Shown here piece after piece: positions 23,796 through 42,553 of a stretch of 64,000 bases of DNA. The position numbers and the translations under genes were made by a program. Where the stretch lies: the sequence record PZ445527.1; one strand, 5' to 3'. The notes under the pieces were generated by a model that was given only the letters and a program-made list of their open reading frames with translations, was not told the DNA's origin and ran no database searches. Every line of letters starts with the position of its first letter. Within the stretch, counting starts at the first letter, position 1. The DNA comes from a phage.

Positions 23796-24164
23796 TTACA
23801 TCGCCTGAGTAAATGTACGACTAATAACGTCGTTCTGCTGTTCACGCGTCAGTGCGTTAAAACGCACAGCATAACCAGAAACACGAATGGTTAGCTGAGG
23901 ATATTTTTCAGGATGTTTCTGAGCATCCAAAAGCTGGTCACGACTTAACACATTGACATTTAGGTGTTGACCCCCTTCAATTTGAGGGGCGACTTCCACC
24001 TTGACTTCACGAAAGGATTCGGGGTCAAAGTGAGGTGTGATACCTTCTAGATCCTCAACTAGAACTTTTTGTTTAAGTTCACCATCTTTAGAGTATAATT
24101 GAATAATCTGATTATTATGAACAATATTAATTACGCCAGATTTAAGATTTTGATATGCTTTCAT
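23796..24164 (-). CDS. grcA: autonomous glycyl radical cofactor (GrcA/YfiD-like)
   Basis: C-terminal half closely matches remembered E. coli GrcA blocks ([30 protein letters not shown]). Confidence 0.8.
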
Positions 24165-24529
24165 TAGATCTCCCTGATGTTAGAATTTGGCTCAGCTTTT
24201 TGTTAACCCAGAAGCAAGATAAAAACTGGAAGGCAGGCTTGCTTTTCTCTTAACCACTAGGCTACTTTTGGGTGCTAGCATTCCGGTGAGATTGATGGTC
24301 TCGGTTAAGAAGAAAAACACGGGACTTCTGTTTTAACGTCGTGCTCCCGGATTGATGCGACTACGTGATTGCTCGCGCTAAGACAATGGCTATCTAAAGT
24401 CTTAGCTTCTACATTTATACTCCTGGATAGCATGGAGTTGCAGTCTACTTCCTGCTGTCACGCCCGGTCATTTATAGAATGTGGACTCTCTTCTCAGCAA
24501 GTTCTGGCACTATGGCCTGATCTTCTGTT

Positions 24530-24603
24530 TGGTAGTTAGTAGTGGAATCGAACCAGGTTCCACGGTTTACAAGACCGTTGCATCGCCAGCAATGCTTTAA
24601 GAG
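24530..24603 (-). ncRNA. tRNA-like remnant: anticodon arm with UGU (Thr-like) plus imperfect T-arm, no matching 5' acceptor strand
   Basis: acggt-cttgtaa-accgt arm with U33/A37, then GGTTCGATTCC-like loop and CCA; acceptor pairing not found. Confidence 0.3.
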
Positions 24604-24996
24604 CTATCGTTGTCTTGTTGAAACTCTATTTCTGGCCCTATGCGTAGAGGTCATAGAGTGGCAGTTAGGGCAGAGAATCTTTAGATTTTCTGGAGAACAG
24701 TTAGTTGCATCTCCATCTATATGATCTACCTCAGTTAAAACTGCTCCGTCAATTGGATGTTTCCCATCCCAACCACATACTTCACAAGCAGTACCACGAG
24801 TATCCCACAGCCACTTCCTAACAAAAGGTTTTAATTGTGCAGCTTTACCAGTATAACCAGGTTCTTCACCTGCCAGCCACTTTAATACTTTTTGCTTTGT
24901 CTGGTACTCCTGCTGACAAGCAGGACCACAATACTTACCTGCGGAACCTCTACTTTTAGGTTTTGTGATTCCGCAATTTAAACAAGTAAACTCCAT
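24604..24996 (-). CDS. HNH endonuclease 130 aa
   Basis: HNH core (HIDGD...N...NL..LCPNCH) with zinc-finger cysteines. Confidence 0.75.
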   Translation of the reverse strand: MEFTCLNCGITKPKSRGSAGKYCGPACQQEYQTKQKVLKWLAGEEPGYTGKAAQLKPFVRKWLWDTRGTACEVCGWDGKHPIDGAVLTEVDHIDGDATNCSPENLKILCPNCHSMTSTHRARNRVSTRQR

Positions 24997-25160
24997 GTTG
25001 CTTCCTATTTCAACGGGATTTCTTTTTCAATAACAAGGGCTTATCAGTCATAACTGTCATTGCCATTTGTTGTAGAAATTCAAAGGTGAAGGCTACACGT
25101 TCTTCACCAATCTCTACTTCTACACGTTTCTTTTGTTTGTCAACCTTTAATTTTAGGCTA

Positions 25161-25382
25161 TCAGCCATCTTCGGATTCTCGTTGCTCGGCTACTGCTAGC
25201 CAGTCTGGTAAAAGAAACTTAGTACGAAACTCTTCATACGTTTCTTCTGGATAAAAGCTAAAACCCCCTTTCTCATCATTCAAGATAACAGAGCCGTCAG
25301 TTTGTTCATATGCTCGATATGTTTCTCCAATAATGATAACTCGCTTATCAGTACTTTTATTACGAAACTCAAAAACGTGCAT
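25161..25382 (-). CDS. hypothetical protein 73 aa
   Basis: ORF track. Confidence 0.45.
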   Translation of the reverse strand: MHVFEFRNKSTDKRVIIIGETYRAYEQTDGSVILNDEKGGFSFYPEETYEEFRTKFLLPDWLAVAEQRESEDG

Positions 25383-25398
25383 AACGTTTCCTTAAAGT

Positions 25399-25474
25399 TG
25401 GAGCGGCTAGAGGGAATCGAACCCTACTCAGCGAGGCTTGGAAGGCCTGCGACACAACCCGTGTGCTTAACCGC
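25399..25474 (-). tRNA. tRNA-Gly (anticodon UCC)
   Basis: Hand fold: 7-bp acceptor (one G-U), T-loop GGTTCGATTCC, anticodon loop CTTCCAA, encoded CCA. Confidence 0.55.
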
Positions 25475-25482
25475 TTATTGTT

Positions 25483-25560
25483 TGGCAGGGGATATTGGAT
25501 TTGAACCAATGATCTCGACTTCAAAGGCCGTTGTGCTAACCGTTACACTACTCTCCAATT
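25483..25560 (-). ncRNA. tRNA-like 3' fragment (canonical T-arm + acceptor 3' strand + CCA) without a pairing 5' acceptor strand
   Basis: ATTGG-TTCAAAT-CCAAT T-arm followed by atcccct-g-CCA; no complementary 5' strand within 100 nt. Confidence 0.3.
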
Positions 25561-25648
25561 GTTTGGCTGGAGTGCCTGATTCAATCCCAGGCACCTTCGG
25601 AGTCAGAGGCCGACGACTTGACAATTGATCTACACCTCAAGAATACTA

Positions 25649-25885
25649 TTAACTAGATGCTGGTTCTGCTGGCTGAGATACAGCAGGCTGTTCTAATGTA
25701 TCTGGTGCTGATACAGAGAAAAGAGCTTGTAATGCTGCAATATCACGCTCGTAAGTTTCAATACGAGTAGTAAGAGTATCTACCATCTGTTTATGATAGG
25801 CTAAGTTATTCTGAGATTCATCTCGAAGGGTTTGCAGTTCTGCAAGACGTGTTAACATAATTTCACTAATTAAAGCATTACTCAT
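25649..25885 (-). CDS. hypothetical coiled-coil protein 78 aa
   Basis: ORF track. Confidence 0.5.
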   Translation of the reverse strand: MSNALISEIMLTRLAELQTLRDESQNNLAYHKQMVDTLTTRIETYERDIAALQALFSVSAPDTLEQPAVSQPAEPASS

Positions 25886-26075
25886 TTGTTTCTCCTAAAT
25901 TTTCCGGTTCTTCTAAACGTTTGCCTTCATGATCTACTCGAATAACTCCGCATCCTTCGCAAATCACAACTGCACCATAACCTTCTTTGACTTCAGCTTC
26001 TGTAATCAAACCAGAAAGATCACCAGTATCTCTGCCCCACATATCAATGGAGCATTGTTTGCAGAAATCAGCCAT
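25878..26075 (-). CDS. small Cys-containing protein 65 aa
   Basis: ORF track; CKQC...CEGC. Confidence 0.45.
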   Translation of the reverse strand: MADFCKQCSIDMWGRDTGDLSGLITEAEVKEGYGAVVICEGCGVIRVDHEGKRLEEPENLGETNE

Positions 26076-26100
26076 ATTTTATTTCCTATTTAAGTTAATT

Positions 26101-26177
26101 TGGGGTGGCTAGTGGAACTCGAATCCACATAGGCCTGATTCACAATCAGGATCATTAACCAATTATGATATAGCCAC
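26101..26177 (-). tRNA. tRNA-His (anticodon GUG)
   Basis: Perfect 7-bp acceptor, D-stem TCAT/ATGA, anticodon stem CCTGA/TCAGG with loop TTGTGAA, T-arm GTGGA-TTCGAGT-TCCAC, encoded CCA. Confidence 0.75.
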
Positions 26178-26543
26178 AATTGAAAACTCGCAGGGTTAGC
26201 GAAACCATCCTCAATTAGCATGTTCTAGAATACTAATCAAGTTATCTCCTATTGCACGCAGCTCAAGACGAGTACGAATTTTCAATTGTGGCGGCTCTCA
26301 GAAACTCTTCTATTCTAGCCTCAGAAGCTTACCCCCGAACGCATGTCGGGAAAGTCTTTCCAAGCGCATCAAATAGCACCGTTACACTTTGAGCCATTGA
26401 TGTATCAAGGAATAGAAGGACTTGAACCTTCATGAGTTAGACCATTTAACTCAACCGCTTTTTAGGGTATATTTCTAGGAGTGGATGTTCCTAGTAAACC
26501 TATTCGGCAGTCCCGTCTACCAATTCCGGCATATTCCAAGATT

Positions 26544-26638
26544 TGGAGGTAGGTAAGGGGATCGAACCATTACACCGTATCACTACGGTCAACCGATTTC
26601 AAGTCGGAGTCCATCGCCAGCCGTTGGATTGACCTACC
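26544..26638 (-). tRNA. tRNA-Ser (anticodon UGA), type II
   Basis: 7-bp perfect acceptor, anticodon loop CTTGAAA, long variable arm (ACCGTA/TACGGT), T-loop TTCGATC, CCA. Confidence 0.7.
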
Positions 26639-26650
26639 TTATAAATTGTT

Positions 26651-26735
26651 TGGTGGGTTAGGAGAGACTCGAACTCTCACGCACTTAAGCAAGGGCTTCT
26701 AAGACCCTCGTGGCTACCAATTACACCACTAACCC
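26651..26735 (-). tRNA. tRNA-Leu (anticodon UAG), type II
   Basis: 7-bp perfect acceptor, anticodon loop CTTAGAA, long variable arm, T-arm GAGAG-TTCGAGT-CTCTC, CCA. Confidence 0.7.
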
Positions 26736-26741
26736 CTAATT

Positions 26742-26816
26742 TGGTGGACAGTAGGAGAGTCGAACTCCTCACTCCTGAGTGCAAGTCAGGTATTTTCCCA
26801 GATAAACTAACCGCCC
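26742..26816 (-). tRNA. tRNA-Ala (anticodon UGC)
   Basis: Acceptor GGGCGGT with G3:U70 wobble (Ala identity element), anticodon stem CCTGA/TCAGG loop CTTGCAC, T-arm AGGAG-TTCGACT-CTCCT, CCA. Confidence 0.7.
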
Positions 26817-27055
26817 AAATTCTTTAATTTACTAAGGCTATTAGCTCGGCGTAACTACAGCACCTTCGCTTCAAGCGGAAGGAACCGCGTCATCTCGCAA
26901 ACCCAATACACTATTCAGTTGCCGCTGAATCTAGTGGACTAATCTAGAACTTCTCCCGAGTCGTAGGGATCGTGCTTTTTGGCAGCCAGTCCTAGGTCGA
27001 GCTAATACCTTAGTGAATTATGATGAGGATTTCTCCCATATCAATTTATATAAAT

Positions 27056-27084
27056 ATTATAACAAGAAATTAATCATCAAGCAA
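27056..27084 (-). promoter_or_regulatory. sigma70 promoter (TTGCTT-17-TATAAT) driving the tRNA block 26101-26816
   Basis: Minus strand consensus upstream of untranslated spacer and tRNAs. Confidence 0.65.
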
Positions 27085-27158
27085 TTGAGTTTTTCTTGAA
27101 ATTGGTAGCGGGTTCCAGTACTGCCCTGGACTTACTTAGCTTATGAGACTAAGAAGAA
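27083..27158 (-). ncRNA. tRNA-like sequence with CAU anticodon, 1:72 mismatch and non-canonical T-loop
   Basis: Acceptor 6/7 bp with CCA, anticodon loop CTCATAA; T-loop GGCAGTA lacks the T-psi-C pattern. Confidence 0.3.
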
Positions 27159-27165
27159 CTCTATG

Positions 27166-27260
27166 CCTTCCACCCGCAATTGTTTGGTTATTCTAGACAG
27201 GATTCGAACCTGTTATCACTTGTGCGGACTTACGAGAACCATTCTTTCACTCGAATCGAA
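27166..27260 (-). ncRNA. region with two T-loop-like motifs (GGTTCGAATCC and CGTTCGATTCG) that does not fold into a canonical tRNA
   Basis: Hand folding failed to find anticodon arm/acceptor pairing. Confidence 0.25.
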
Positions 27261-27431
27261 CGAGCTTCTGCCCTAGCCAAGCTGGTTTCCCCATCAACCA
27301 CGCTAGAATGTTTGATTGTTTTCAGTGCAAGAGTCCGAGTCTTGGACACGACCGTTTCGCAAGTACATAGGCAGCTTATCATGAGTCAGCACTTCCGAAT
27401 TGCTAGCCCCGTGTTCTGCACTGAAATTTTA

Positions 27432-27779
27432 TTAGTTTAACCGTAAAGTATTATCTAATTCACCATTAATTGTTCGGCATTCCTCTGGAATTGCTGGTGT
27501 GGCCTTGTATTCCCACCACTCAGCACCATCATATTCCCCACGTTCTAGCCAAGTTCCGTCGGCAAACCATACATTACCATAAAGTAATTGTCCACCGTAT
27601 CCAGAATCATACTCAAAGTCTAGGTTATCAAGAAAATCCTCAATATCTTCTTCTGTATAGCCTAAAGGTAATACCCAAACTTTTTTATCCCCATAATACC
27701 CGAATTCTATTTTAATACACTTAATTTTAGAATTGGTATTTTTTAAGGCAAGTAACAACTCTTCTTTAGCATTACGCAT
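27432..27779 (-). CDS. hypothetical protein 115 aa
   Basis: ORF track. Confidence 0.55.
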   Translation of the reverse strand: MRNAKEELLLALKNTNSKIKCIKIEFGYYGDKKVWVLPLGYTEEDIEDFLDNLDFEYDSGYGGQLLYGNVWFADGTWLERGEYDGAEWWEYKATPAIPEECRTINGELDNTLRLN

Positions 27780-27804
27780 AGTATATTCTCATACTGAATT
27801 AATT

Positions 27805-27881
27805 TGGCGCGACTGATGGGATTTGAACCCACATTCCCTCCCGTGATAGGGGAGTACCATTACCAAGCCAGCCACGGTCGC
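27805..27881 (-). tRNA. tRNA with unusual anticodon loop CTATCAC (anticodon AUC if folded conventionally)
   Basis: Acceptor 6/7 bp + CCA, T-arm GTGGG-TTCAAAT-CCCAT, anticodon stem CTCCC/GGGAG; A34 is atypical. Confidence 0.5.
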
Positions 27882-27890
27882 ATAATTTAT

Positions 27891-28076
27891 TTACTCAGCT
27901 TTGAGTTTTTCAATAGCTGCATTAAGTTCTTTAAGAAACTCTTTTCGTACATTAAGACGATTGAGACTTACTAGTATATCATGTTTAAGTTCTTCGATGT
28001 ATTTCTTCTCAACTTCAATATTGTTGATAGTGCTATCACGATGAACTTCTAGCTGCGCAATCACATTCTTGGACAT
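27891..28076 (-). CDS. hypothetical coiled-coil protein 61 aa
   Basis: ORF track. Confidence 0.4.
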   Translation of the reverse strand: MSKNVIAQLEVHRDSTINNIEVEKKYIEELKHDILVSLNRLNVRKEFLKELNAAIEKLKAE

Positions 28077-28178
28077 GCTTGTTTCCTCAGTTATTAATGA
28101 AAATGGTATCTGTGGCTGAATTAGATGTCAGCAATGATAGCTGGTTGGCTACCGGTTTACTTAACTCTACACAGAATT

Positions 28179-28260
28179 TGGCGGGCCGTGTAGGATTCGA
28201 ACCTACGTTGTCTTTCGACACGGATTAACAATCCGCCGCCAAACCGCTTGGCTAACGACC
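28179..28260 (-). tRNA. type II (long variable arm) tRNA with anticodon GUU
   Basis: 7-bp acceptor (one G-U), D-stem GCCA/TGGC, anticodon arm GCGGA-TTGTTAA-TCCGT, extra arm GTC-GAAA-GAC, T-arm GTAGG-TTCGAAT-CCTAC, CCA. Confidence 0.55.
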
Positions 28261-28416
28261 CTAAAAAATTTATATTGCTGACTAGGGTTTTCACCTAGAC
28301 GGAGTTAGCACCGTAGCGTGTAGCGGCATACCTCTCCAAACCGTGCCTCATCTTTCAATTACGGAGACAGTGTTCCTACGCGTGCCTGAATTGATTTAAC
28401 AATTCTTTCAGCAAAT

Positions 28417-28492
28417 TGGACGACCGCATGAGGATTGAACTCACATAAAAAGGATTTGCAATCCTTCGCCTAAGCCATTCAGCCAACGGTCG
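28417..28492 (-). tRNA. tRNA-Cys (anticodon GCA)
   Basis: 7-bp acceptor, anticodon stem AAGGA/TCCTT loop TTGCAAA, T-loop TTCAATC, CCA; 5' end overlaps stop of ORF 28479..28670. Confidence 0.65.
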
Positions 28493-28670
28493 ATTTATCT
28501 TGTTTTTCGAGATCTTCAAACTCTAAATCATTGAAGTTCCCTAGAGTACGGGTATAGAACCCATCCCCTGCGTCATAGCCTGATTTACCACAATCACACA
28601 TTTTAAATTCGCGCAGGTGTGTGAAAACATGTTCAGAACCACAACACTTAAATCTAACTAATCGTTTCAT
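28479..28670 (-). CDS. small zinc-finger-like protein 63 aa
   Basis: ORF track; CC...CDCGKSG. Confidence 0.4.
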   Translation of the reverse strand: MKRLVRFKCCGSEHVFTHLREFKMCDCGKSGYDAGDGFYTRTLGNFNDLEFEDLEKQDKSTVG

Positions 28671-28698
28671 TAGCTTCTCCAGTTCAATTTATGTAATT

Positions 28699-28727
28699 AT
28701 TATATAGAACTTTTGGGAACTAAGCAA
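28699..28727 (-). promoter_or_regulatory. sigma70 promoter (TTGCTT-17-TATAAT)
   Basis: Minus strand consensus. Confidence 0.65.
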
Positions 28728-29009
28728 CTACATTTTTTAAGAATTTGATGCCTTTCTTTTTCTTCTTATATTTCCACGTTAATGGATTCTGTCGATTATG
28801 AACGCTTGAGATCTTTGTCTCGTCAAAGTTCTTCAATATCATGTAATCACAAGATAATTGTTCTAGTGGAATGTGATCACCGTCAAAAGCGTATACATAA
28901 GGCTGTTGACTAGCACGATAATGATAGACTTTGTTAATTCTACGTTTCAGCGACTTATCCGCGCAGTAAATAAAGAAGTTTTAAGGGTGCATCAGCATCT
29001 CCTTCAATT

Positions 29010-29093
29010 TGGTGCATCGTGCTGGATTTGAACCACCAACCCCGAAGGGCACGGATTTACAGACCGCTGCAATAGCCATTCTGCCAACGATGC
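29010..29093 (-). tRNA. tRNA-Tyr (anticodon GUA), type II
   Basis: Perfect 7-bp acceptor, anticodon loop CTGTAAA, long variable arm (CCC-TTCG-GGG), T-loop TTCAAAT, CCA. Confidence 0.7.
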
Positions 29094-29221
29094 ACATTTA
29101 AAAGTATTCAAATACTAGTTTAAACACTTTTAAATATGTTTCCAAATTAGATAACTATTATACCAAGTTTTAAGGCACTGAGCAAGTCAGATTTTGAAGA
29201 ACTTGCTCAGTGCTGTATTAG

Positions 29222-29506
29222 TTAGTCGAACTTAGGAGTGACAGATAAGGAGAACGGAAGTTCAAAAACTTCTTCACCCTCATTACTAACGGTAACTACA
29301 CGACCTTTAAGTTCAGACATTAAAATATCAATATCAGCTTTTGCATCTGGAGCCATGCCAGCTTCAATACATTTAGCTTTAACTTCCGGTAAAAGCTCTA
29401 CGTTATAGAGATAGAGCCACTCAATCTCACCTTCCCAGTCTTCCCAGTCTTCCCAGGATTTGCAGATTGCACTTTCAATACCAGTTGCTACAACACGATT
29501 TTGCAT
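29222..29506 (-). CDS. hypothetical acidic protein 94 aa
   Basis: ORF track. Confidence 0.5.
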   Translation of the reverse strand: MQNRVVATGIESAICKSWEDWEDWEGEIEWLYLYNVELLPEVKAKCIEAGMAPDAKADIDILMSELKGRVVTVSNEGEEVFELPFSLSVTPKFD

Positions 29507-29596
29507 TCGTTAACTCCTTCATCAATTTATATAACTATTATACCAGAAATTTAAAGCAAAAGGCAAGTACATTTTTAAAAATTCTGTTTGGAGGAG

Positions 29597-29803
29597 CTAA
29601 ACTCCAGATTCTTCTGCCAAGTCTAGACTAATAAGAGTTATAGCCATAATTGCTGCACCGTGTTCTTTTTCTCCGGTGTTTTTAGCAGAGTCTATAATAT
29701 CCTTAATCTGTTCGTAATAACTTTTTACTTCTTGTTCAATGCCTGCCTCGGCTATCATGCCTTTAGTCATGAGTCGTTGCATGGTAATTTCAGTATTAGC
29801 CAT
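29597..29803 (-). CDS. hypothetical protein 68 aa
   Basis: ORF track; GGAG SD. Confidence 0.5.
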   Translation of the reverse strand: MANTEITMQRLMTKGMIAEAGIEQEVKSYYEQIKDIIDSAKNTGEKEHGAAIMAITLISLDLAEESGV

Positions 29804-29963
29804 GTTGTTTCTCCAGTTTCATTTTTAATAGTTTACAAATGAAATCAACGTCTTCATCCGTGCCTAGATCTCTATCTTCAAGGGTTGCCTTGAAATTTTT
29901 TGTTAGTTCCATAAGAATAACTTCCCTGGAACGACGTGTTGGCGGGGGTGGATGTCTATACAT
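29796..29963 (-). CDS. small proline-rich protein (55 aa)
   Basis: ATG with AAGGA SD, MYRHPPPPTRR...; below ORF track cut-off; overlaps next start by 8 nt. Confidence 0.4.
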   Translation of the reverse strand: MYRHPPPPTRRSREVILMELTKNFKATLEDRDLGTDEDVDFICKLLKMKLEKQHG

Positions 29964-29978
29964 CTTATTTCCTTAATT

Positions 29979-30053
29979 TGGTGGGTCGGAGGAGAATCTA
30001 ACTCCTACTCGTTAGCTTATGAGGCCACCGCTTTAACTTTAAGCTACCGACCC
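29979..30053 (-). tRNA. tRNA with CAU anticodon (Met or Ile-lysidine type) and atypical T-loop TTAGATT
   Basis: Perfect 7-bp acceptor GGGTCGG/CCGACCC, CCA, anticodon loop CTCATAA, T-stem AGGAG/CTCCT. Confidence 0.55.
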
Positions 30054-30059
30054 TATGTT

Positions 30060-30148
30060 TGGCGGAAGAAGTGGGAATCGAACCCACAAGGCTATATTTC
30101 AAACCGACAGATTAGCAATCTGCTGCAATACCGTTATGCTATTCTTCC
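30060..30148 (-). tRNA. tRNA-Ser (anticodon GCU), type II
   Basis: Perfect acceptor GGAAGAA/TTCTTCC, anticodon arm GCAGA-TTGCTAA-TCTGT, long variable arm, T-arm GTGGG-TTCGATT-CCCAC, CCA. Confidence 0.7.
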
Positions 30149-30162
30149 GAATTTATAAATAT

Positions 30163-30191
30163 ATTATATTAGAAATTTAGCTTCATAGCAA
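30163..30191 (-). promoter_or_regulatory. sigma70 promoter (TTGCTA-17-TATAAT) overlapping the 3' end of the upstream gene
   Basis: Minus strand consensus; would drive tRNAs 30148-29979. Confidence 0.6.
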
Positions 30192-30687
30192 GAAAATTTT
30201 TCAAGTTTTCGGTAGACATCTCATCCACATCTACAGGAGAAACAAATCCATTTAATTGTCTAGCAAATTTTTTACCAGCAGGATCATTATCCCCAACAGC
30301 TACCAATTTAAAAGGTAGTAATTTCAATTGCTTTAATAGCGCTTTTCCTGGAGAAGAACCCAACATTGCCAAGGCTGGATAACCAGCGTTATGTAACGCA
30401 ACTGCCTTAAATACAGATTCAGCAATCAATACCACTTTTTCATCTCCATTGAGAGTTTCTAGTCCCCATACACACTGTGTAGTAGAATAAGTAAAATATC
30501 TAGCTTCAAAGGGGCACTTACCATGACCTTTTGGAGCAGAAGGATTATAAGTCTGATAGCCTCTCAACATCCCAGAGAAGTCATACAATGGGACTGTTAG
30601 CCATCCTTCCGGGCTTAACCAGCAATGATATTTATCTGTATCAAACCCTCTAGATAAGAGATGTTCTGTTAGTTCATCAACAGTCAT
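30169..30687 (-). CDS. Toprim-domain protein 172 aa
   Basis: Conserved Glu (LIAESVF) and DxD (VGDNDPAGKK) spaced as in Toprim folds. Confidence 0.5.
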   Translation of the reverse strand: MTVDELTEHLLSRGFDTDKYHCWLSPEGWLTVPLYDFSGMLRGYQTYNPSAPKGHGKCPFEARYFTYSTTQCVWGLETLNGDEKVVLIAESVFKAVALHNAGYPALAMLGSSPGKALLKQLKLLPFKLVAVGDNDPAGKKFARQLNGFVSPVDVDEMSTENLKNFLAMKLNF

Positions 30688-30724
30688 ATTTGATCCCCTA
30701 GTTAGTTGTATAAATACATTATAC

Positions 30725-30758
30725 AGAAAAGCCCTGCGCTCTCCAGTGAACGCAGGGC
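30725..30758 (-). terminator. rho-independent terminator (gccctgcg...cgcagggc + U-tract)
   Basis: 8-bp GC stem followed by UUUU on minus strand, downstream of 30784..31731. Confidence 0.65.
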
Positions 30759-30783
30759 TTACTTCGAATATTACGTGTGGGTA

Positions 30784-31731
30784 TTACTTGTTACGCATAT
30801 CCATAATCATTTGGCCATCGTAACCAGTGCCAACCACAGTCTGCGGTACACCACCTTGATACTTCTGAGCACGAATCATTTCAACTTCTAGTTGCTTCCA
30901 GCGAATCATCTCAGGAGTAATGGTACGTTGCAGAGCGGCGTTAGCTTCAGCTTCTTTCTTAGCTGCGTACAGTTTAGCATCTGCATCACGTTCGTTTGCA
31001 ATAGCTTGGTTGTTACGAGCTTCACGATCTGCTTCTGCTTGTTTAACCTTCTGCTGTGCTTCTTGTTCAACACGAGCCAACTCAGCTTTCGCAGCATTAA
31101 CTTGTTCTTCACGAACTTTGGTATTCTGTACCTGTTCCATGATTACAGGCGGCAAAGTAATATCCTGAAGGAACACTTGCTTAACTGTGTAACCATAAGG
31201 GCGTGCATACTCTTCAACTTCCTGTTGAATTGCAGTTTGCAATTGAGCCTGAATTTTAGCATCAAACAAATCTTGTGCTTTAGGTACAGACTTACCAAAC
31301 TCACGAATAGTAGACAGTAATTTTTCAGTTACATACTTGTCTAGTGCCTGATCCTGAGTACCTGCATTAATACGGTTAATCGGTGCCTTAGAACCATCAA
31401 ACTGCAACATAACAGTCAGGTCAACAGTGGATTTAAACTTATCCTGACTAGGAACCTGAAGTTTATCTAATTTTACAGCAATATCTTTTGTACTGAAAGT
31501 ATCGAAAGATGCAAACGGGTTTACAATATGGAAACCAGGTAATACTGGATTAGGGTCTACTTTACCAAGAAATGTTTGGGTTTTAACCGTACCATCAGAA
31601 ACAATAGTATATGAATTAAAAGCTAGGATTAAACCTGCTAAACCAACTACAGCACCAATACCCCAACGTTTAATAGTACGGATTACTTTCTGCTCAGAAG
31701 TCAGTTCTTTCATATTTTTAGTAGCAAACAT
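30784..31731 (-). CDS. SPFH/band-7 (prohibitin/HflK-like) membrane protein 315 aa
   Basis: N-terminal TM helix, SPFH-like core, long Ala/Glu/Gln-rich coiled-coil C-terminus. Confidence 0.6.
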   Translation of the reverse strand: MFATKNMKELTSEQKVIRTIKRWGIGAVVGLAGLILAFNSYTIVSDGTVKTQTFLGKVDPNPVLPGFHIVNPFASFDTFSTKDIAVKLDKLQVPSQDKFKSTVDLTVMLQFDGSKAPINRINAGTQDQALDKYVTEKLLSTIREFGKSVPKAQDLFDAKIQAQLQTAIQQEVEEYARPYGYTVKQVFLQDITLPPVIMEQVQNTKVREEQVNAAKAELARVEQEAQQKVKQAEADREARNNQAIANERDADAKLYAAKKEAEANAALQRTITPEMIRWKQLEVEMIRAQKYQGGVPQTVVGTGYDGQMIMDMRNK

Positions 31732-31765
31732 ATATTTCCTTTGTTTTAGTTACAGTTAATAAAAT

Positions 31766-31839
31766 TGGCCGAGGTGACAGGATTCGAACCTGCATAAAGG
31801 AATTTAGAAGACTCCTGCCTCTCCCTTAGACTACACCCC
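31766..31839 (-). tRNA. tRNA-Arg (anticodon UCU)
   Basis: Acceptor 7 bp (one G-U), anticodon loop CTTCTAA, T-loop TTCGAAT, CCA. Confidence 0.6.
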
Positions 31840-32343
31840 GTTTAAGTATTTTTAAGAACTCTCGTAAAAACTCTTAAAAATACAGACGATACCGGGAGAG
31901 TCATAAGTCTCACTCATTAAGTATTTCAAGACAAAATACAGTAACGTCTATTATTTTCCAGTTTAAGTCAGGGTGACTTAGTGGTTATGTCCTGCGGTAT
32001 ATTGAGGACTCGGTTAGGCTTGGGGTCATGACTTCCCGCCTTTTGCTGCTACTCAACAGGAGTTATCGCGAATTACCTGTGCTATTGTGCACCATTAGTG
32101 ACATCTCTCATGCCAGCATTTCCCACTTTGTGGATAGCTTGAAAAACTACTCCGATACGGAGAAAGAACTTCACTATCCTAGAATACCTTCTAAAGTTCT
32201 TCTTTAGCCTGGACATAGTTAAATCGTAATAAAACTATTCAGCAGACCGGTTGGTTAGTCTGGAACCAACTACCGCGTGGTTTAGGCAGTGCGCAACTAA
32301 CCTCGGAAGCTTTTACGTTAAAAGCACCAGTTATCCAGTTCTT

Positions 32344-32416
32344 ACCGACCGTAGGATTCGAACCTACATCTTCCACCAGTTACGGCTTGATAATACCAAT
32401 TATACTAGGACGGCAG
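32344..32416 (-). ncRNA. tRNA-like sequence (canonical T-arm GTAGG-TTCGAAT-CCTAC, no CCA, anticodon arm not resolved)
   Basis: Hand fold incomplete. Confidence 0.35.
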
Positions 32417-32490
32417 TGTTACTACATAAGTGATTTCCACACCCCACTATTTATAAATTAGAAAAGAATTACTCTCTAATTTATGAATAT

Positions 32491-32519
32491 ATTATACAGA
32501 ATTTATAAGCATTTAGCAA
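32491..32519 (-). promoter_or_regulatory. sigma70 promoter (TTGCTA-17-TATAAT)
   Basis: Minus strand consensus; transcribes leftward into 32416-31766. Confidence 0.7.
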
Positions 32520-32527
32520 ATGAATTT

Positions 32528-32962
32528 TTAGAAAAACTCGCTAGCAATCAAGGCGGCTGTTTTACCATCATAACGCCCTGTAAACTCTGCCTTAATAGTT
32601 TTCATTAAGAGAGCTTTGGTAATACCTGGGTTTAGCTTAACCAATTCTGCAAAGTATTTACGAATTTCAGTTTCAGTTAACTGTTGCAGTGCATAATCAT
32701 GCTCTAAACGCGCTAAAAGATCTAAGTATTCAGCATCAGGGGTATAGTCAACATTCGATTTTTCAGCAGCAATCCGTGTATTCTCAATTGCTTTGAATTG
32801 TGATTTCAACCAGTTAGTAAACTCCAGCTCAGTTACGCAATCTTTATCAATACGTTGCAGGTCTCCTAGAACCGTACTTAGATGCTTAACTGATACAGCG
32901 TCACCACTTTTGCGAGCAGCTTCAATCAACTCTCGCAGTACATAAAGCATATTCATGCCCAT
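32528..32962 (-). CDS. hypothetical protein 144 aa
   Basis: ORF track. Confidence 0.55.
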   Translation of the reverse strand: MGMNMLYVLRELIEAARKSGDAVSVKHLSTVLGDLQRIDKDCVTELEFTNWLKSQFKAIENTRIAAEKSNVDYTPDAEYLDLLARLEHDYALQQLTETEIRKYFAELVKLNPGITKALLMKTIKAEFTGRYDGKTAALIASEFF

Positions 32963-33132
32963 TATTTCATCCCCAATGCTTGGTTGAAAGATTGTTCCGT
33001 CATAACTGCTGAGACTTTGGCGAAATCAAACTTTTTAGGGTTAGTAGTGATCTCAGCAACGTTGGAAGTTTTAACAGTTTTCGTAGTACGAATACCGCGA
33101 GTGTTAACACCAATGACGATCAAGTTTTTCAT
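32962..33132 (-). CDS. small protein (56 aa)
   Basis: ATG at 33132 with GAGAGGAAG SD; stop overlaps next start (TAATG); below ORF track cut-off. Confidence 0.5.
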   Translation of the reverse strand: MKNLIVIGVNTRGIRTTKTVKTSNVAEITTNPKKFDFAKVSAVMTEQSFNQALGMK

Positions 33133-33163
33133 ATTTCGCTTCCTCTCATTAATTTATGAAAGT

Positions 33164-33192
33164 ATTATACAGAAGTTTAAGTATTTAAGCAA
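33164..33192 (-). promoter_or_regulatory. sigma70 promoter (TTGCTT-17-TATAAT)
   Basis: Minus strand consensus. Confidence 0.7.
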
Positions 33193-33200
33193 ATAAATTT

Positions 33201-33650
33201 TTAAGTTTTAGTGACAACAGGCTTATAAAATGTATGTCCCTTAATCTTAGTTGTTTTCTTAAACTTCTTTGTCCAGTACGGTTTATCTTTACCACTATGG
33301 AAGTATAAAGCTCCATGTGTAGGATCTTGTGGTAAATCAACGTAGTATATCACTCTAGCTAAATTCTTGGCGGTTTTCCAAGCCTCATCGGTTTTATCAA
33401 CTTTTGGTCTCTTAGATACCCAAGAGAACTGGTTAGACTGATATACTACTTTACAGTAGGAATCTGGGAATTTACCGGAGTTTACACGGTTTTTAGTAAC
33501 ATGTGCAATCGCCGTCATTCCCTTTATGCCCTCACCACGACTTTCGAAATAGATATTTTTAGCAATGCAATCTATTTCTTTTGCATCGTGCGATGCCTGA
33601 CTACTAAAGCTGAAGGTAAGGGCAGCTACTAAAAGCAAAGCTGCCTTCAT
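33201..33650 (-). CDS. SleB-like cell wall hydrolase with signal peptide 149 aa
   Basis: Signal peptide MKAALLLVAALTFSFSSQA; hydrolase_2/SleB signature NIYFESRGE...AHVTKNRV...FP.SYC.VV.Q.NQFSW. Confidence 0.7.
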   Translation of the reverse strand: MKAALLLVAALTFSFSSQASHDAKEIDCIAKNIYFESRGEGIKGMTAIAHVTKNRVNSGKFPDSYCKVVYQSNQFSWVSKRPKVDKTDEAWKTAKNLARVIYYVDLPQDPTHGALYFHSGKDKPYWTKKFKKTTKIKGHTFYKPVVTKT

Positions 33651-33662
33651 TCTTTTTACTCC

Positions 33663-34484
33663 TTAAAATAGATCATATTCTAATCTATTGGGATTTTCTC
33701 GGTATCCATAAGACGTAAGAGTACCCCTCATATACTCTGCGTCAACAGGATTAGATGTTACTAGAACCACTTTTAGTGGTCTTTGACCTAAAAATAGTAT
33801 ATGATCTAATAAGTCTTTTCCTTGTACCTCTGGATCTCCTAAATCTGAGTCCATAAATAAATAGGATCCTGTGAAACTAAATATATCTGATAGTTCCAGC
33901 GCACCTATAACTGTACGACAAATAATGGACATTTCAGGTAGATCTCTAACATCGTCTATTAGAATATTGGTCTGCTTCCCAATTTCTGCATTACATAAAC
34001 CATTTACTAGTTTTTCTCTTTCCCCTTTAGCTTGTTCGAAAGTGGTGAAGCCAGGAGATACGAAAAACTTTCCACCTAATGTAATGCTATACACAAAACC
34101 CTCTGGGAGTAGTTCTACACCTACGGTTTTATTAGTATTAATCCTATTTAACTTAAAATTTGTCTCTCTTAGATTAATAATTCTGTTATCCCACGGTATA
34201 GTATTTATATGGTCGATCATATAAGGCGGCTCTTCACCATAATGGAGCAACCACGCTATTCGGTGTCCATAAATAATTGTGGGTTTATTATCTAAGAGCA
34301 AACTAACTCTGATGTACCCATCAGAGTTCTTACTACATATTTCTCTCCCAGCATATAGGGTGTGCCAAGTTTTATTCTTGTATTTATTAGGCTTATAAAA
34401 TAATTTACCGGTATAAGGATTATACTCTATAATTTCTCGAATATAATCTATATATGGTAGTATTTGTTTTTGTAATTTACCCAT
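33663..34484 (-). CDS. HNH endonuclease domain protein 273 aa
   Basis: N-terminal AP2-like segment and HNH motif (GHRIAWLLHYG...IDHINTIPWDNRIINLR). Confidence 0.6.
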   Translation of the reverse strand: MGKLQKQILPYIDYIREIIEYNPYTGKLFYKPNKYKNKTWHTLYAGREICSKNSDGYIRVSLLLDNKPTIIYGHRIAWLLHYGEEPPYMIDHINTIPWDNRIINLRETNFKLNRINTNKTVGVELLPEGFVYSITLGGKFFVSPGFTTFEQAKGEREKLVNGLCNAEIGKQTNILIDDVRDLPEMSIICRTVIGALELSDIFSFTGSYLFMDSDLGDPEVQGKDLLDHILFLGQRPLKVVLVTSNPVDAEYMRGTLTSYGYRENPNRLEYDLF

Positions 34485-40038: not shown

Positions 40039-40878
40039 TTAAGAAGACATCTTAGCTTTAAGAGCTGGGTGAGGATCATACCCCTCCAAATGGAATGACC
40101 AAGCTGCCGTATTATTTTCTAGTAAGTCGTAAAGATCTACAAATTCTGGCATTACTAGAGTCGGTAAAGGACGAGGTTTACGTTTTACCTGTTCTTCTAC
40201 CTGTTCCATGTGGTCATTATAGATATGAGTATCGCCGCCACTAAAGATAAGGTAGCGAGGTTTTAATCCTGTCAGTTTTGCTAATATATGCGTTAATAAA
40301 GCATAACTAGCAATGTTGAAAGGTAAACCGAGGAAACAATCCACAGAACGTTGTGTCCATTTAAGATCTAGGTATCCATCGTTACTTACATAGCACTGGA
40401 AGCCGTAGTGACAGGGTGGTAATGCCATTTTATCAAGTTCAGCTACGTTCCATGCAGATACTAGGTGTCTGCGACCATGTGGGTTATTTTTGAGTCCCTC
40501 AATAAGTTCTATAATCTGATCTCGTCCACCAAAGTTGCGCCATTGTTTACCATATACTGGCCCTAGATTACCTTTGTCATAACCCATACTTATGGCTTGG
40601 TCTTCGTAGTTTGGAGTCCATATAGTCCATTGCCCCTCATCACACCCAAAAGTGAATACACGTAGATCATGAAGATTTGTGGAACCAGACAAGAACCATA
40701 AAAGTTCTCCTACTACTGATTTCCAGGCCAGGCGTTTAGTAGTTACAGCCGGGAACCCTTCACGTAGATCGAACTTAGCATAGGAATCAAAAATTGAAAC
40801 TGTGCCTGTTCCTGTACGGTCATTACGGGGTTCACCTAGTAAAATTACATCTGTCAAAATTTTTAAGTATTGTTGCAT
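40039..40878 (-). CDS. thyA: thymidylate synthase (ThyA type) 279 aa
   Basis: Conserved ThyA blocks (GxxxxDRTGTGT, catalytic-Cys region LPPCH, GLPFNIASYALLTHI). Confidence 0.9.
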   Translation of the reverse strand: MQQYLKILTDVILLGEPRNDRTGTGTVSIFDSYAKFDLREGFPAVTTKRLAWKSVVGELLWFLSGSTNLHDLRVFTFGCDEGQWTIWTPNYEDQAISMGYDKGNLGPVYGKQWRNFGGRDQIIELIEGLKNNPHGRRHLVSAWNVAELDKMALPPCHYGFQCYVSNDGYLDLKWTQRSVDCFLGLPFNIASYALLTHILAKLTGLKPRYLIFSGGDTHIYNDHMEQVEEQVKRKPRPLPTLVMPEFVDLYDLLENNTAAWSFHLEGYDPHPALKAKMSS

Positions 40879-41411
40879 TAATAAGTAACCAATTCCTGTA
40901 CAAATCGCAGGCTGTTATCACTGTTTGCGCCAACTGCATAGACTAATCGAGTGGATTCATAGTTATAATCCAGTATCATACTATCTAGGTGTGTATCTGC
41001 CTCTAGCTTCTGTTCGCTAAAGATTGTAGATACAAAAGCACTTTCAATATGCCCATGTTGGTACATTTCTAGAAGAAGACTAGCTCCACCTAGAACTACT
41101 GTTTGCTGATCTTTTAGAAAGGTAGGTAATGTATCACCTATCATTGATATGGGAGTGTAAATATCGTGTGTAATATCGTCTGGCAGTGGACGATCAGCAC
41201 GAATAAATAGGTCAGAAGCTCCAATCATACGTTCCCTAACGGTATATGGAAGAGCTAAATAAGTACCCGCACCAATGATGATATTATCGGGATTCAACAC
41301 GTCCAGTTGGGAATAGAAAGCATTCAGCTCTTCCTTGAAGGAGCCCCAAGGAAGCTTACCCCGGAGGCCGAACTCCCCATTCGGCCCAACTGCATACATT
41401 GCTGTAATCAT
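40878..41411 (-). CDS. frd: dihydrofolate reductase 177 aa
   Basis: DHFR-like N-terminus (IGxxGxLPW), size, position between thyA and nrdB. Confidence 0.75.
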   Translation of the reverse strand: MITAMYAVGPNGEFGLRGKLPWGSFKEELNAFYSQLDVLNPDNIIIGAGTYLALPYTVRERMIGASDLFIRADRPLPDDITHDIYTPISMIGDTLPTFLKDQQTVVLGGASLLLEMYQHGHIESAFVSTIFSEQKLEADTHLDSMILDYNYESTRLVYAVGANSDNSLRFVQELVTY

Positions 41412-42553
41412 AGGAAATCTCCAAATTCATTACCCAAATCTTTCAGGGTATCCATAGACGTTTCTGTGACTTGACCTACACGGTAGGCTGCACCAATCTG
41501 GATTTCTTGTGGAGCAGGCTGTAGAGAGGTAGTATCCAACCAGTTCATGATCCACGGAATAGGGTTTTTGGTGATTACTGGTAAGTGACTAGGCCATTCT
41601 ACACCAATGTGCATAAATGCATTACGCCCCACAAAGTACAGATATTCTTCTAGAAGTTCTGCATTCAAACCAATCAGACTACGACCTTTGAAGATGAAAT
41701 GACCCCATTCAATTTCAGTTTTCAGAGTTTTCAGGAGCTGTGCTGGTGCTTTAGCCACTGCTTCATCTACCAGATCTTTGTCAAACTGCTGGAACATAAT
41801 CTGGATGATTGTTTTAGACATCTGCGTGTGAAGGGCCTCATCCTTAGCAATCAACTGCAGATTTTTAGCAATACCTTGCAGAATATCGTTCTCTGCTAAC
41901 GCAAAGGTACATGCAAAGGATGCGTAGAACTGCATTGCTTCCAGACCGTAGATTGCAAAATAAGCATCTAACAGTTTAGCCTGAGTTTCACGCTTAACTT
42001 CAGGGAACTCAGTTTCTGGGTATGTATTGTCACCACGATGATCACGTACTGCGATGAAATACTGACCTAACTGGTACAGTTCATCAAATAGTTCAACAGA
42101 ATCTGCGATACGTGCAAATGCTTCTTGGTTTTTAGTTACAGAATCAATAAATTCTGCCGGATCAGTCAACACATTACGAATAATATTGCTATAGGCACGA
42201 CTATGCAGGTCTTCAAAGTAGCTCCACTGTTTTAGCATTCCTTCCAGTTCAGGGCGGCTTACAAGCGGCATAATAGCTGCTTCAGGTGCGCGACTAATGA
42301 AAGAATCTGTTTGGGTCTGCCATGCTAAGTTCAGGAGTGTAATTTCCTGAATTTCACGAGGGAGGTTAGGCCATTGTTTCTTATCAGCCTCTAAACTGAT
42401 TTCTGTCTCAGTCCAAAATTGAGAGCGTTGCAGAAGTGCCAGACGCTCTAATTCTGGATGTGCTACGCGTACATAATCTGCGATACCTAGAGAATCGCCC
42501 AGGAAAAGATCAGCGTTAGTATGATCCCAATTCAGGTTTAGTAAAGTAGTCAT
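41408..42553 (-). CDS. nrdB: ribonucleotide reductase class Ia small subunit (NrdB) 381 aa
   Basis: Di-iron/tyrosyl-radical R2 blocks, size, adjacency to nrdA. Confidence 0.85.
   Translation of the reverse strand: MTTLLNLNWDHTNADLFLGDSLGIADYVRVAHPELERLALLQRSQFWTETEISLEADKKQWPNLPREIQEITLLNLAWQTQTDSFISRAPEAAIMPLVSRPELEGMLKQWSYFEDLHSRAYSNIIRNVLTDPAEFIDSVTKNQEAFARIADSVELFDELYQLGQYFIAVRDHRGDNTYPETEFPEVKRETQAKLLDAYFAIYGLEAMQFYASFACTFALAENDILQGIAKNLQLIAKDEALHTQMSKTIIQIMFQQFDKDLVDEAVAKAPAQLLKTLKTEIEWGHFIFKGRSLIGLNAELLEEYLYFVGRNAFMHIGVEWPSHLPVITKNPIPWIMNWLDTTSLQPAPQEIQIGAAYRVGQVTETSMDTLKDLGNEFGDFL

Follow-up and report, generated by a model that had tools for sequence, protein, structure and literature searches.

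An orthologue of T5 RNAX in a T5-like phage: a candidate modular RNA with a tRNA mimic in a helical clamp

What is encoded by the 502-nt stretch that separates a tRNA-like element from tRNA-Arg in the tRNA island of a T5-like phage? Our window, the whole sequence analysed here, comprises 64,000 nt of PZ445527.1, and the element under study lies on its minus strand. T5 is a classical model phage whose relatives are common in collections for therapy and biocontrol. The tRNA islands of phages counter tRNA-cleaving defences such as PARIS and retron Eco7, and the non-tRNA stable RNAs of the T4 and T5 islands have been without an assigned function for about 40 years. An initial annotation had read the stretch as an untranslated spacer and a candidate structured ncRNA.

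ARAGORN located 12 tRNAs within 25.4-31.9 kb of the window. The minus strand carries, in order, a gene for a 144-aa protein, a promoter, a 5'-terminal hairpin, the tRNA-like element, the 502-nt stretch, tRNA-Arg, an SPFH/Band-7 gene, and a terminator (Table 1). Many Tequintavirus genomes share 97-99% identity with this region. The flank coordinates of the initial annotation agreed with the ARAGORN and Rfam calls to 1-2 bases, and the consensus promoter from which it had the stretch transcribed was recovered as a homologue of T5 promoter P16-17, kept at 85-93% in relatives. The leader, which contains the 5'-terminal hairpin, folds with z = -2.35, and close relatives carry a 147-nt insertion inside the hairpin loop.

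Table 1. Positions of the RNA, its proposed structural elements, and its neighbours in the window
Feature	Position	Strand	Basis or remark
Gene for 144-aa protein	32962-32528	minus	Upstream of promoter
Sigma-70 early promoter, TTGCTA-17-TATAAT	32519-32491	minus	Consensus scan; homologue of T5-annotated promoter P16-17
5'-terminal hairpin, 10-13 bp	32453-32484	minus	Right after predicted start site
P1, 5' strand, AUCACUUAUGUAGU	32434-32421	minus	Invariant GGGGUG before; invariant junction AACACU (32420-32415) after
tRNA-like element	32343-32414	minus	Rfam tRNA, 35.5 bits (gathering score 29)
502-nt stretch	32342-31841	minus	Between tRNA-like element and tRNA-Arg
P1, 3' strand, ACUGGAUAACUGGU	32339-32326	minus	Helix count, alignment A1
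H2	32325-32309	minus	Covariation, alignment A2
H3	32302-32285	minus	Covariation, alignment A2
Hairpin B, T-loop-like	32270-32250	minus	Same hairpin as in initial annotation
Cassette C, 72 nt	32133-32205	minus	Long stem and inner hairpin, then weak terminator-like hairpin and U-tract (32162-32141)
Cassette D	31988-32127	minus	Several covarying hairpins
Cassette E, near-universal 3' domain	31841-31988	minus	Hairpin AGUCACCCUGACU, three-way junction around conserved CUUAAU, terminal hairpin
Cassette E terminal hairpin, 17-bp	31884-31846	minus	Followed by 5 nt, CUUAA (31845-31841), then tRNA-Arg
tRNA-Arg(UCU)	31766-31840	minus	ARAGORN and Rfam, 49.3 bits; co-transcription predicted
Strong terminator	30760-30729	minus	Downstream of SPFH/Band-7 gene

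Comparison with the T5 reference genome (NC_005859) gave a match to positions 40847-41432 at 92% identity, lying under the misc_RNA feature rnaX (T5s08, 40848-41566), a 719-nt "stable RNA with unknown functions" that spans promoter P16-17 to tRNA-Arg. Homology and the shared synteny of promoter P16-17, RNA, tRNA-Arg, and SPFH gene place both in one orthologue group; the T5 RNA has the same promoter, tRNA-like element, and downstream genes, and differs by an extra 87-nt local duplication in its 3' domain (cassette E). We therefore favour, at a probability of about 70%, the reading that the segment makes up the main part of the T5 RNAX orthologue in this phage, a large structured non-coding RNA that would form the first part of an early transcript. 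Because the T5 annotation already carries rnaX, the existence of the RNA is known. That annotation gives neither structure nor function, our literature searches found no paper on either, and the structural model developed below (the P1 clamp, an anticodon-less swappable tRNA mimic, a cassette mosaic, and a near-universal 3' domain) appears to be undescribed.

A distant-mode BLAST search with the spacer retrieved 508 phage records containing the stretch. Outside T5-like phages the signature motif gave chance matches only (seven unrelated metagenome loci and one bacterial-genome contig): the genome scan found no genuine relative beyond this group, and the metagenome scan added merely more T5-like phage contigs. 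As judged from these comparisons, conservation of the RNA extends over Markadamsvirinae and Sugarlandvirus, and the core of the RNA is also present in Priunavirus.

Could the locus instead act as DNA, for example as a site of replication or recombination or as a set of homing-endonuclease targets, or carry genes for small proteins? Annotators have often placed ORFs of 30-60 aa here, one of which matches PHROG 19105; the mosaic organization described below implies frequent recombination; and HNH endonuclease and other ORFs are inserted at the RNA borders in some relatives. The minus-strand ORFs of the spacer are 23-45 aa long and lack a Shine-Dalgarno sequence, bearing out the earlier statement that none has a ribosome-binding site. 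Each of the six ORFs mapped on the two strands (23-60 aa) is hit by frameshifts or stops in relatives 86-98% identical; no ORF survives on either strand, and the conserved small ORFs that the initial annotation had named as a refuting outcome were not seen. Indels separating the window from relatives at 73-99% identity are nearly all of 1 nt, and a Pfam search of the spacer ORFs gave no match. PHROG 19105 ("unknown function"), the sole PHROG match, corresponds to a 45-aa annotators' ORF (32239-32376, minus strand) that begins within the T arm of the tRNA-like element and contains a stop codon in JLBYU43; its presence across T5-like genomes probably reflects the spread of an annotation artefact. 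The small-protein reading was dropped on the strength of the disrupted ORFs, the 1-nt indels, the lack of Pfam matches, and the overlap of the PHROG ORF with the T arm, and comparison among relatives shows 31841-32342 to be non-coding. A role as DNA is countered by the substitutions within helices: across all proposed helices we counted 167 G·U against 20 A·C appositions, and therefore the minus-strand RNA is what has been selected, not duplex DNA or the plus strand. Taken with the ORF data, this makes a DNA-level element or small-protein genes an extremely improbable account of the locus.

The spacer folds with z = -2.1 on the minus strand and z = -0.66 on the plus strand. Covariation scores on the two alignments, A1 and A2, exceeded those of all 500 shuffles and every slid control, although these shuffle statistics are generous and overstate significance, because the aligned sequences are phylogenetically related and the effective sequence number of the covariance model is 1.35. 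The covariation nonetheless shows that many helices are maintained by selection on the minus-strand RNA. The proposed comparison across related phages thus yielded covarying helices in P1, H2/H3/B, C, D, and E. Together with the T5 RNAX annotation, the lack of a conserved ORF, and the G·U/A·C asymmetry, these helices support the earlier proposal of a structured, functional ncRNA transcribed together with the tRNAs.

The tRNA-like element is enclosed by P1, a helix of 14 positions made up of 12 pairs and two conserved mismatches (C·C and G·G). Because P1 pairs 32434-32421 with 32339-32326, the RNA unit reaches beyond the tRNA-like element. The initial annotation was correct in seeing a structured stretch here, but the tRNA-like element that it took as a boundary belongs to the same fold, as does the 5' leader. 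From the predicted start site, the unit would run from about 32484 to 31841, or ~640 nt, and thus exceed the spacer as first delimited.

In the 19 distinct sequences of alignment A1, 99.6% of P1 cells are paired, with 6 of the 12 pairs changed on both sides. Compensations include AUC/GGU to CUG/CGG and UAGU/ACUG to UAAC/GUUG, UAGC/GCUA, or UGAU/AUCA. The covariation score of this 5' domain was 0.334 vs. 0.170 for shuffled alignments (0/500 as high), and slid controls reached <=0.06. The helix also outlasts its content. In Kp150049, L025, and L042, an unrelated insert of ~45 nt takes the place of the tRNA-like element while P1 is kept, and in Providencia phage PR1 (Priunavirus) the covariance model R1 found the P1 core at 53.7 bits, with a 25-nt insert and new compensations. 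Because the P1 core persists around these other inserts, the conserved unit, as read from the alignments, is the clamp with its invariant strands GGGGUG, AACACUGCC, and AAGA, and the tRNA mimic is an exchangeable passenger.

The passenger itself resembles a tRNA in part. Its acceptor, D, and T arms carry it above the gathering score of Rfam model RF00005, and these helices are 83-93% paired in relatives. The 5-bp anticodon stem, 7-nt loop, and conserved anticodon of a tRNA are lacking: the Rfam tRNA model leaves 18 nt of the anticodon region unaligned, and the arm at this position takes one of two forms, a 6-nt loop on a stem of 3-4 bp or the long extra arm seen in Sugarlandvirus, and is 73.5% paired overall, with a loop that varies by lineage. 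CCA is not encoded, and ARAGORN made no tRNA call at 32343-32414.

Directly 3' of the clamp, H2, H3, and hairpin B form a second block. On alignment A2 these helices are 91.3% paired, include 7 pairs with double changes, and have a covariation score of 0.218 vs. 0.107 shuffled (0/500). The hairpin ttggtt-agtctgg-aaccaa, offered in the initial annotation as an example of stable structure, is present at 32251-32269, and KKP3711 compensates it with a change from G-C to A-U. We tentatively propose a pseudoknot between the H3 loop UUGCG and CGCGG (32277-32273), for which one compensated pair provides the basis. Dimerization by kissing of H3 loops, whose UGCGCA is palindromic, was considered and rejected; IMGVR16 lacks the palindrome and instead compensates the intramolecular pseudoknot.

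Could the whole stretch be evolutionary debris, that is, decayed tRNA genes or a processing spacer serving solely the maturation of tRNA-Arg and the downstream mRNA? It lies within a tRNA island, one of its elements is a degenerate tRNA, and H2/H3/B allow a second cloverleaf to be drawn, in which UUCCAGA is T-loop-like. Deletions in the T5 tRNA region are viable, although the reported deletions stop short of RNAX and leave it outside (PMC11464382). Decay is difficult to reconcile with the compensatory changes that keep non-tRNA helices, above all P1, with loops and junctions that are invariant across genera, and with retention of the P1 core where the tRNA mimic is lost. The second cloverleaf was likewise rejected as a present-day structure: its acceptor pairing CUGGU/ACCGG is lost in SE24 and KKP3711, whereas the competing P1 pairing is kept and is the one backed by covariation. 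It could at most be an evolutionary remnant, and we regard debris as a very unlikely explanation for the stretch as a whole.

Comparison of 15 locus types from INPHARED, and then of about 45 more loci from IMG/VR and metagenomes, disclosed that the RNA is a mosaic of ~70-150 nt cassettes (A, B, C, D, and E) shuffled among genera. Cassette A, which comprises the leader, the tRNA-like element, and two hairpins, occurs in all locus types, and cassette E in all 15 except that of Pantoea phage AAS21. Alternative cassettes (x590, x644, x782, and x840) occur in other phages, as does additional sequence of up to ~480 nt upstream of A, and the length of the non-coding tract in relatives ranges over 0.6-1.3 kb. 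Cassette order is mostly conserved, with the exception that C and x644 exchange places; D is missing in some phages.

Individual cassettes have distinct signatures. Identity of cassette C in Enterobacter phage KKP3711 to that in Klebsiella Sugarlandvirus IME260 is 96%, compared with ~72% for its flanks, and its inner hairpin compensates AA/UU to GC/GC. In cassette D, RNAalifold analysis of 14 sequences identified 6 pairs kept through double changes and an invariant AGTCATGACC; its thermodynamic z of +0.76 is unremarkable. One of its hairpin loops, AGUCAUGA (32034-32026, minus strand), contains the palindrome UCAUGA and is invariant in 14/14 diverse sequences above a covarying stem, which makes it a candidate site for loop-loop (kissing) self-association. 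Cassette E folds with z = -4.15, and its architecture is constant through four sequence variants, including a covarying terminal hairpin of 17-19 bp.

This modularity is also what would be expected of a polycistronic array of independent stable RNAs of ~70-150 nt, one per cassette, cut by host RNases from a precursor in the manner of T5 RNA I/III/IV and the tRNAs. The cassettes fold locally, and from phage to phage each may be present, missing, substituted, or moved independently of the others; cassette C, whose conservation across genera is of a degree typical of tRNAs, has a terminator-like hairpin and U-tract at its end. That cassettes are so freely exchanged, reordered, and lost speaks against a single integrated tertiary fold and fits several independent small RNAs as well, and the weak terminator-like site in C could end some transcripts early. 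Moreover, seven other stable RNAs of ~70-170 nt (RNA I, III, IV, 1, 2, 2H, and 3) are annotated in the same T5 tRNA region. However, no helix other than P1 closes the ends of a cassette as an acceptor stem closes a tRNA, adjoining cassettes are separated by only 0-3 nt with no recognisable processing signals between them, and the T5 annotation records one 719-nt RNA. An array of separate RNAs is unlikely in our view, although the exchange of cassettes suits it roughly as well as it suits a single large RNA.

The other T5 stable RNAs, and T4 species 1 and 2 (RNA C and D), share with RNAX the status of non-tRNA stable RNAs within phage tRNA clusters but are far shorter (~70-170 nt). The RNAs of both sets mature with the tRNAs of their cluster and have had no function assigned for decades. 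Searching the rest of the window and the T5 tRNA region for sequences similar to the RNAX cassettes yielded neither a paralogue nor any similarity to the other stable RNAs.

To relate the RNA to described families, we scanned the locus with Rfam 15 at E-values up to 1 over 24000-34000 and up to 10 over 31830-32500. This permissive scan, a check suggested by the initial annotation, matched the tRNA family only, through the tRNA-like element; it gave nothing for GOLLD, ROOL, Y RNA, YrlA, tmRNA, riboswitches, or sRNAs. The Rfam models of YrlA, GOLLD, and ROOL all failed to match and so give no support for membership of RNAX in any of the three. The tmRNA arrangement, a tRNA-like domain built from both ends plus a tag frame, is also absent, with no ARAGORN tmRNA and no conserved ORF.

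GOLLD and ROOL, large ornate RNAs of phages and prophages, appear to be the best-fitting analogues. Both are phage RNAs found near tRNA islands and both form cages; in GOLLD the 3' region is conserved and the 5' region variable, with tRNAs sometimes in the linker (PMC12286853). Like these non-coding RNAs of several hundred nucleotides without an assigned function, RNAX is large (~640 nt), has covarying helices, and adjoins a tRNA island, here of 12 tRNAs. The GOLLD layout is echoed in the near-universal termini, variable middle, and embedded tRNA mimic of RNAX. The hosts differ, RNAX being found in phages of Enterobacteria and GOLLD/ROOL in Lactobacillales, rumen, or Mycobacterium phages, and a cassette-swapping mosaic is undescribed for GOLLD/ROOL. 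With regard to homo-oligomeric assembly of RNAX, the invariant palindromic loop UCAUGA is the sole hint.

The clamp has a different parallel. In YrlA-type Y RNA, which is associated with Ro/Rsr, a stem from flanking sequences reportedly clamps a tRNA-like module, as described by Chen et al. in RNA in 2014. P1 does the same, and in both cases the clamped module comprises acceptor, D, and T arms and lacks a functional anticodon arm. In RNAX, however, P1 is internal to a far longer RNA and is not made by the RNA's termini, and no family model matches. To our knowledge, E. coli K-12 has no Rsr, and we know of no rsr gene in T5-like phages.

These features suggest how an RNAX orthologue might be made. 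Host RNA polymerase would transcribe it early from the P16-17-type promoter, giving a transcript of RNAX, tRNA-Arg, and the SPFH gene, and the 5'-terminal hairpin would protect the 5' end. Because the long hairpin of cassette E ends 5 nt before tRNA-Arg, a hairpin-protected 3' end is expected: RNase P cutting at tRNA-Arg, 5 nt past the hairpin, would leave a stable RNA. MALAT1/mascRNA is a known case of the same 3'-end logic. RNase P possibly cuts at the tRNA mimic too, in which case P1 could hold the pieces together, and the mimic's acceptor/T minihelix might serve as a recruitment site for RNase P or the CCA-adding enzyme. Most speculatively, the RNA may work in trans, either as a scaffold or as a decoy, on some tRNA-related factor of host or phage. 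A scaffold or decoy of that kind is also the suspected ecological role of GOLLD/ROOL.

A further reading, which we put forward tentatively and think rather doubtful as a whole, is that RNAX represents an undescribed class of large modular phage RNAs, the enterobacterial-phage counterpart of GOLLD/ROOL, in which the clamp would display a swappable mimic and the terminal domains and palindromic loops would allow assembly or a decoy/scaffold role toward tRNA-directed host factors. Examples of such factors would be tRNA-targeting defence nucleases and tRNA-processing and tRNA-binding proteins, with the YqeY-like protein as one candidate partner. Strong structural selection in several genera, exchangeable cassettes, and a conserved clamp around a tRNA mimic that lacks an anticodon turn an ignored annotation line into a defined object, with a secondary-structure model, precise helices, natural insert-swap variants, and a GOLLD/ROOL parallel.

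The candidate partner is the 144-aa protein encoded upstream of the RNA. It has no Pfam match itself, but PF09424 (YqeY) matches 10 of the 14 members of its family, whose profile has a weak match to the B. subtilis YqeY structure 1ng6, suggesting that it belongs to the YqeY family. A YqeY domain raises tRNA affinity in Deinococcus GlnRS (PMC1865053). A ribonucleoprotein of RNAX and the YqeY-like protein is conceivable, but we give it little weight because Sugarlandviruses retain the RNA without the protein; Klebsiella phage records include 3 with the YqeY-like protein vs. 65 with the RNA. Phages without the tRNA mimic still have the protein. A functional link was accordingly set aside as unproven.

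Several observations were made around the locus. A recombination joint lies at ~32470-32528: the YqeY-like gene of the window is the T5 allele (98-99% aa), and slur09 and JLBYU40, with RNAX 98-99% identical, have a YqeY-like allele of only ~61% together with the 147-nt insertion in the 5' hairpin loop. Upstream of the YqeY-like gene, a 56-aa protein (32962-33132, minus strand) aligns with DUF7616 along its entire length (E = 3e-31). The RNA borders are insertion hot spots in relatives (L005 1304-1786, L019 1744-2226, L018 677-1189, and L017 605-1081), where an HNH endonuclease ORF lies between the YqeY-like gene and the RNA or, elsewhere, an ORF of ~160-170 aa lies between the RNA and tRNA-Arg. 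In PR1 (L075 4228-4967), a non-coding gap of ~740 nt follows the YqeY-like gene, in which the P1 core occupies the 3' end instead of the 5' end and an unrelated upstream part contains a T-arm-like GGTTCGATTCC; an opposite-strand ORF annotated in this gap is probably spurious.

Elsewhere in the tRNA island, three minus-strand segments (25402-25475, 24534-24604, and 26407-26476) gave sub-threshold tRNA-like matches of 22-31 bits and are probably the counterparts of the T5 "tRNA-like stable RNAs" RNA1, RNA2, and RNA3. The tRNA-Asp at 27805-27881 (minus strand) has the anticodon AUC (A34; loop CUAUCAC), whereas the annotated tRNA-Asp of T5 has GUC. An A34 tRNA-Asp is unusual; it may be one of those anticodon-loop variants that have been proposed as a means of escaping anticodon nucleases.
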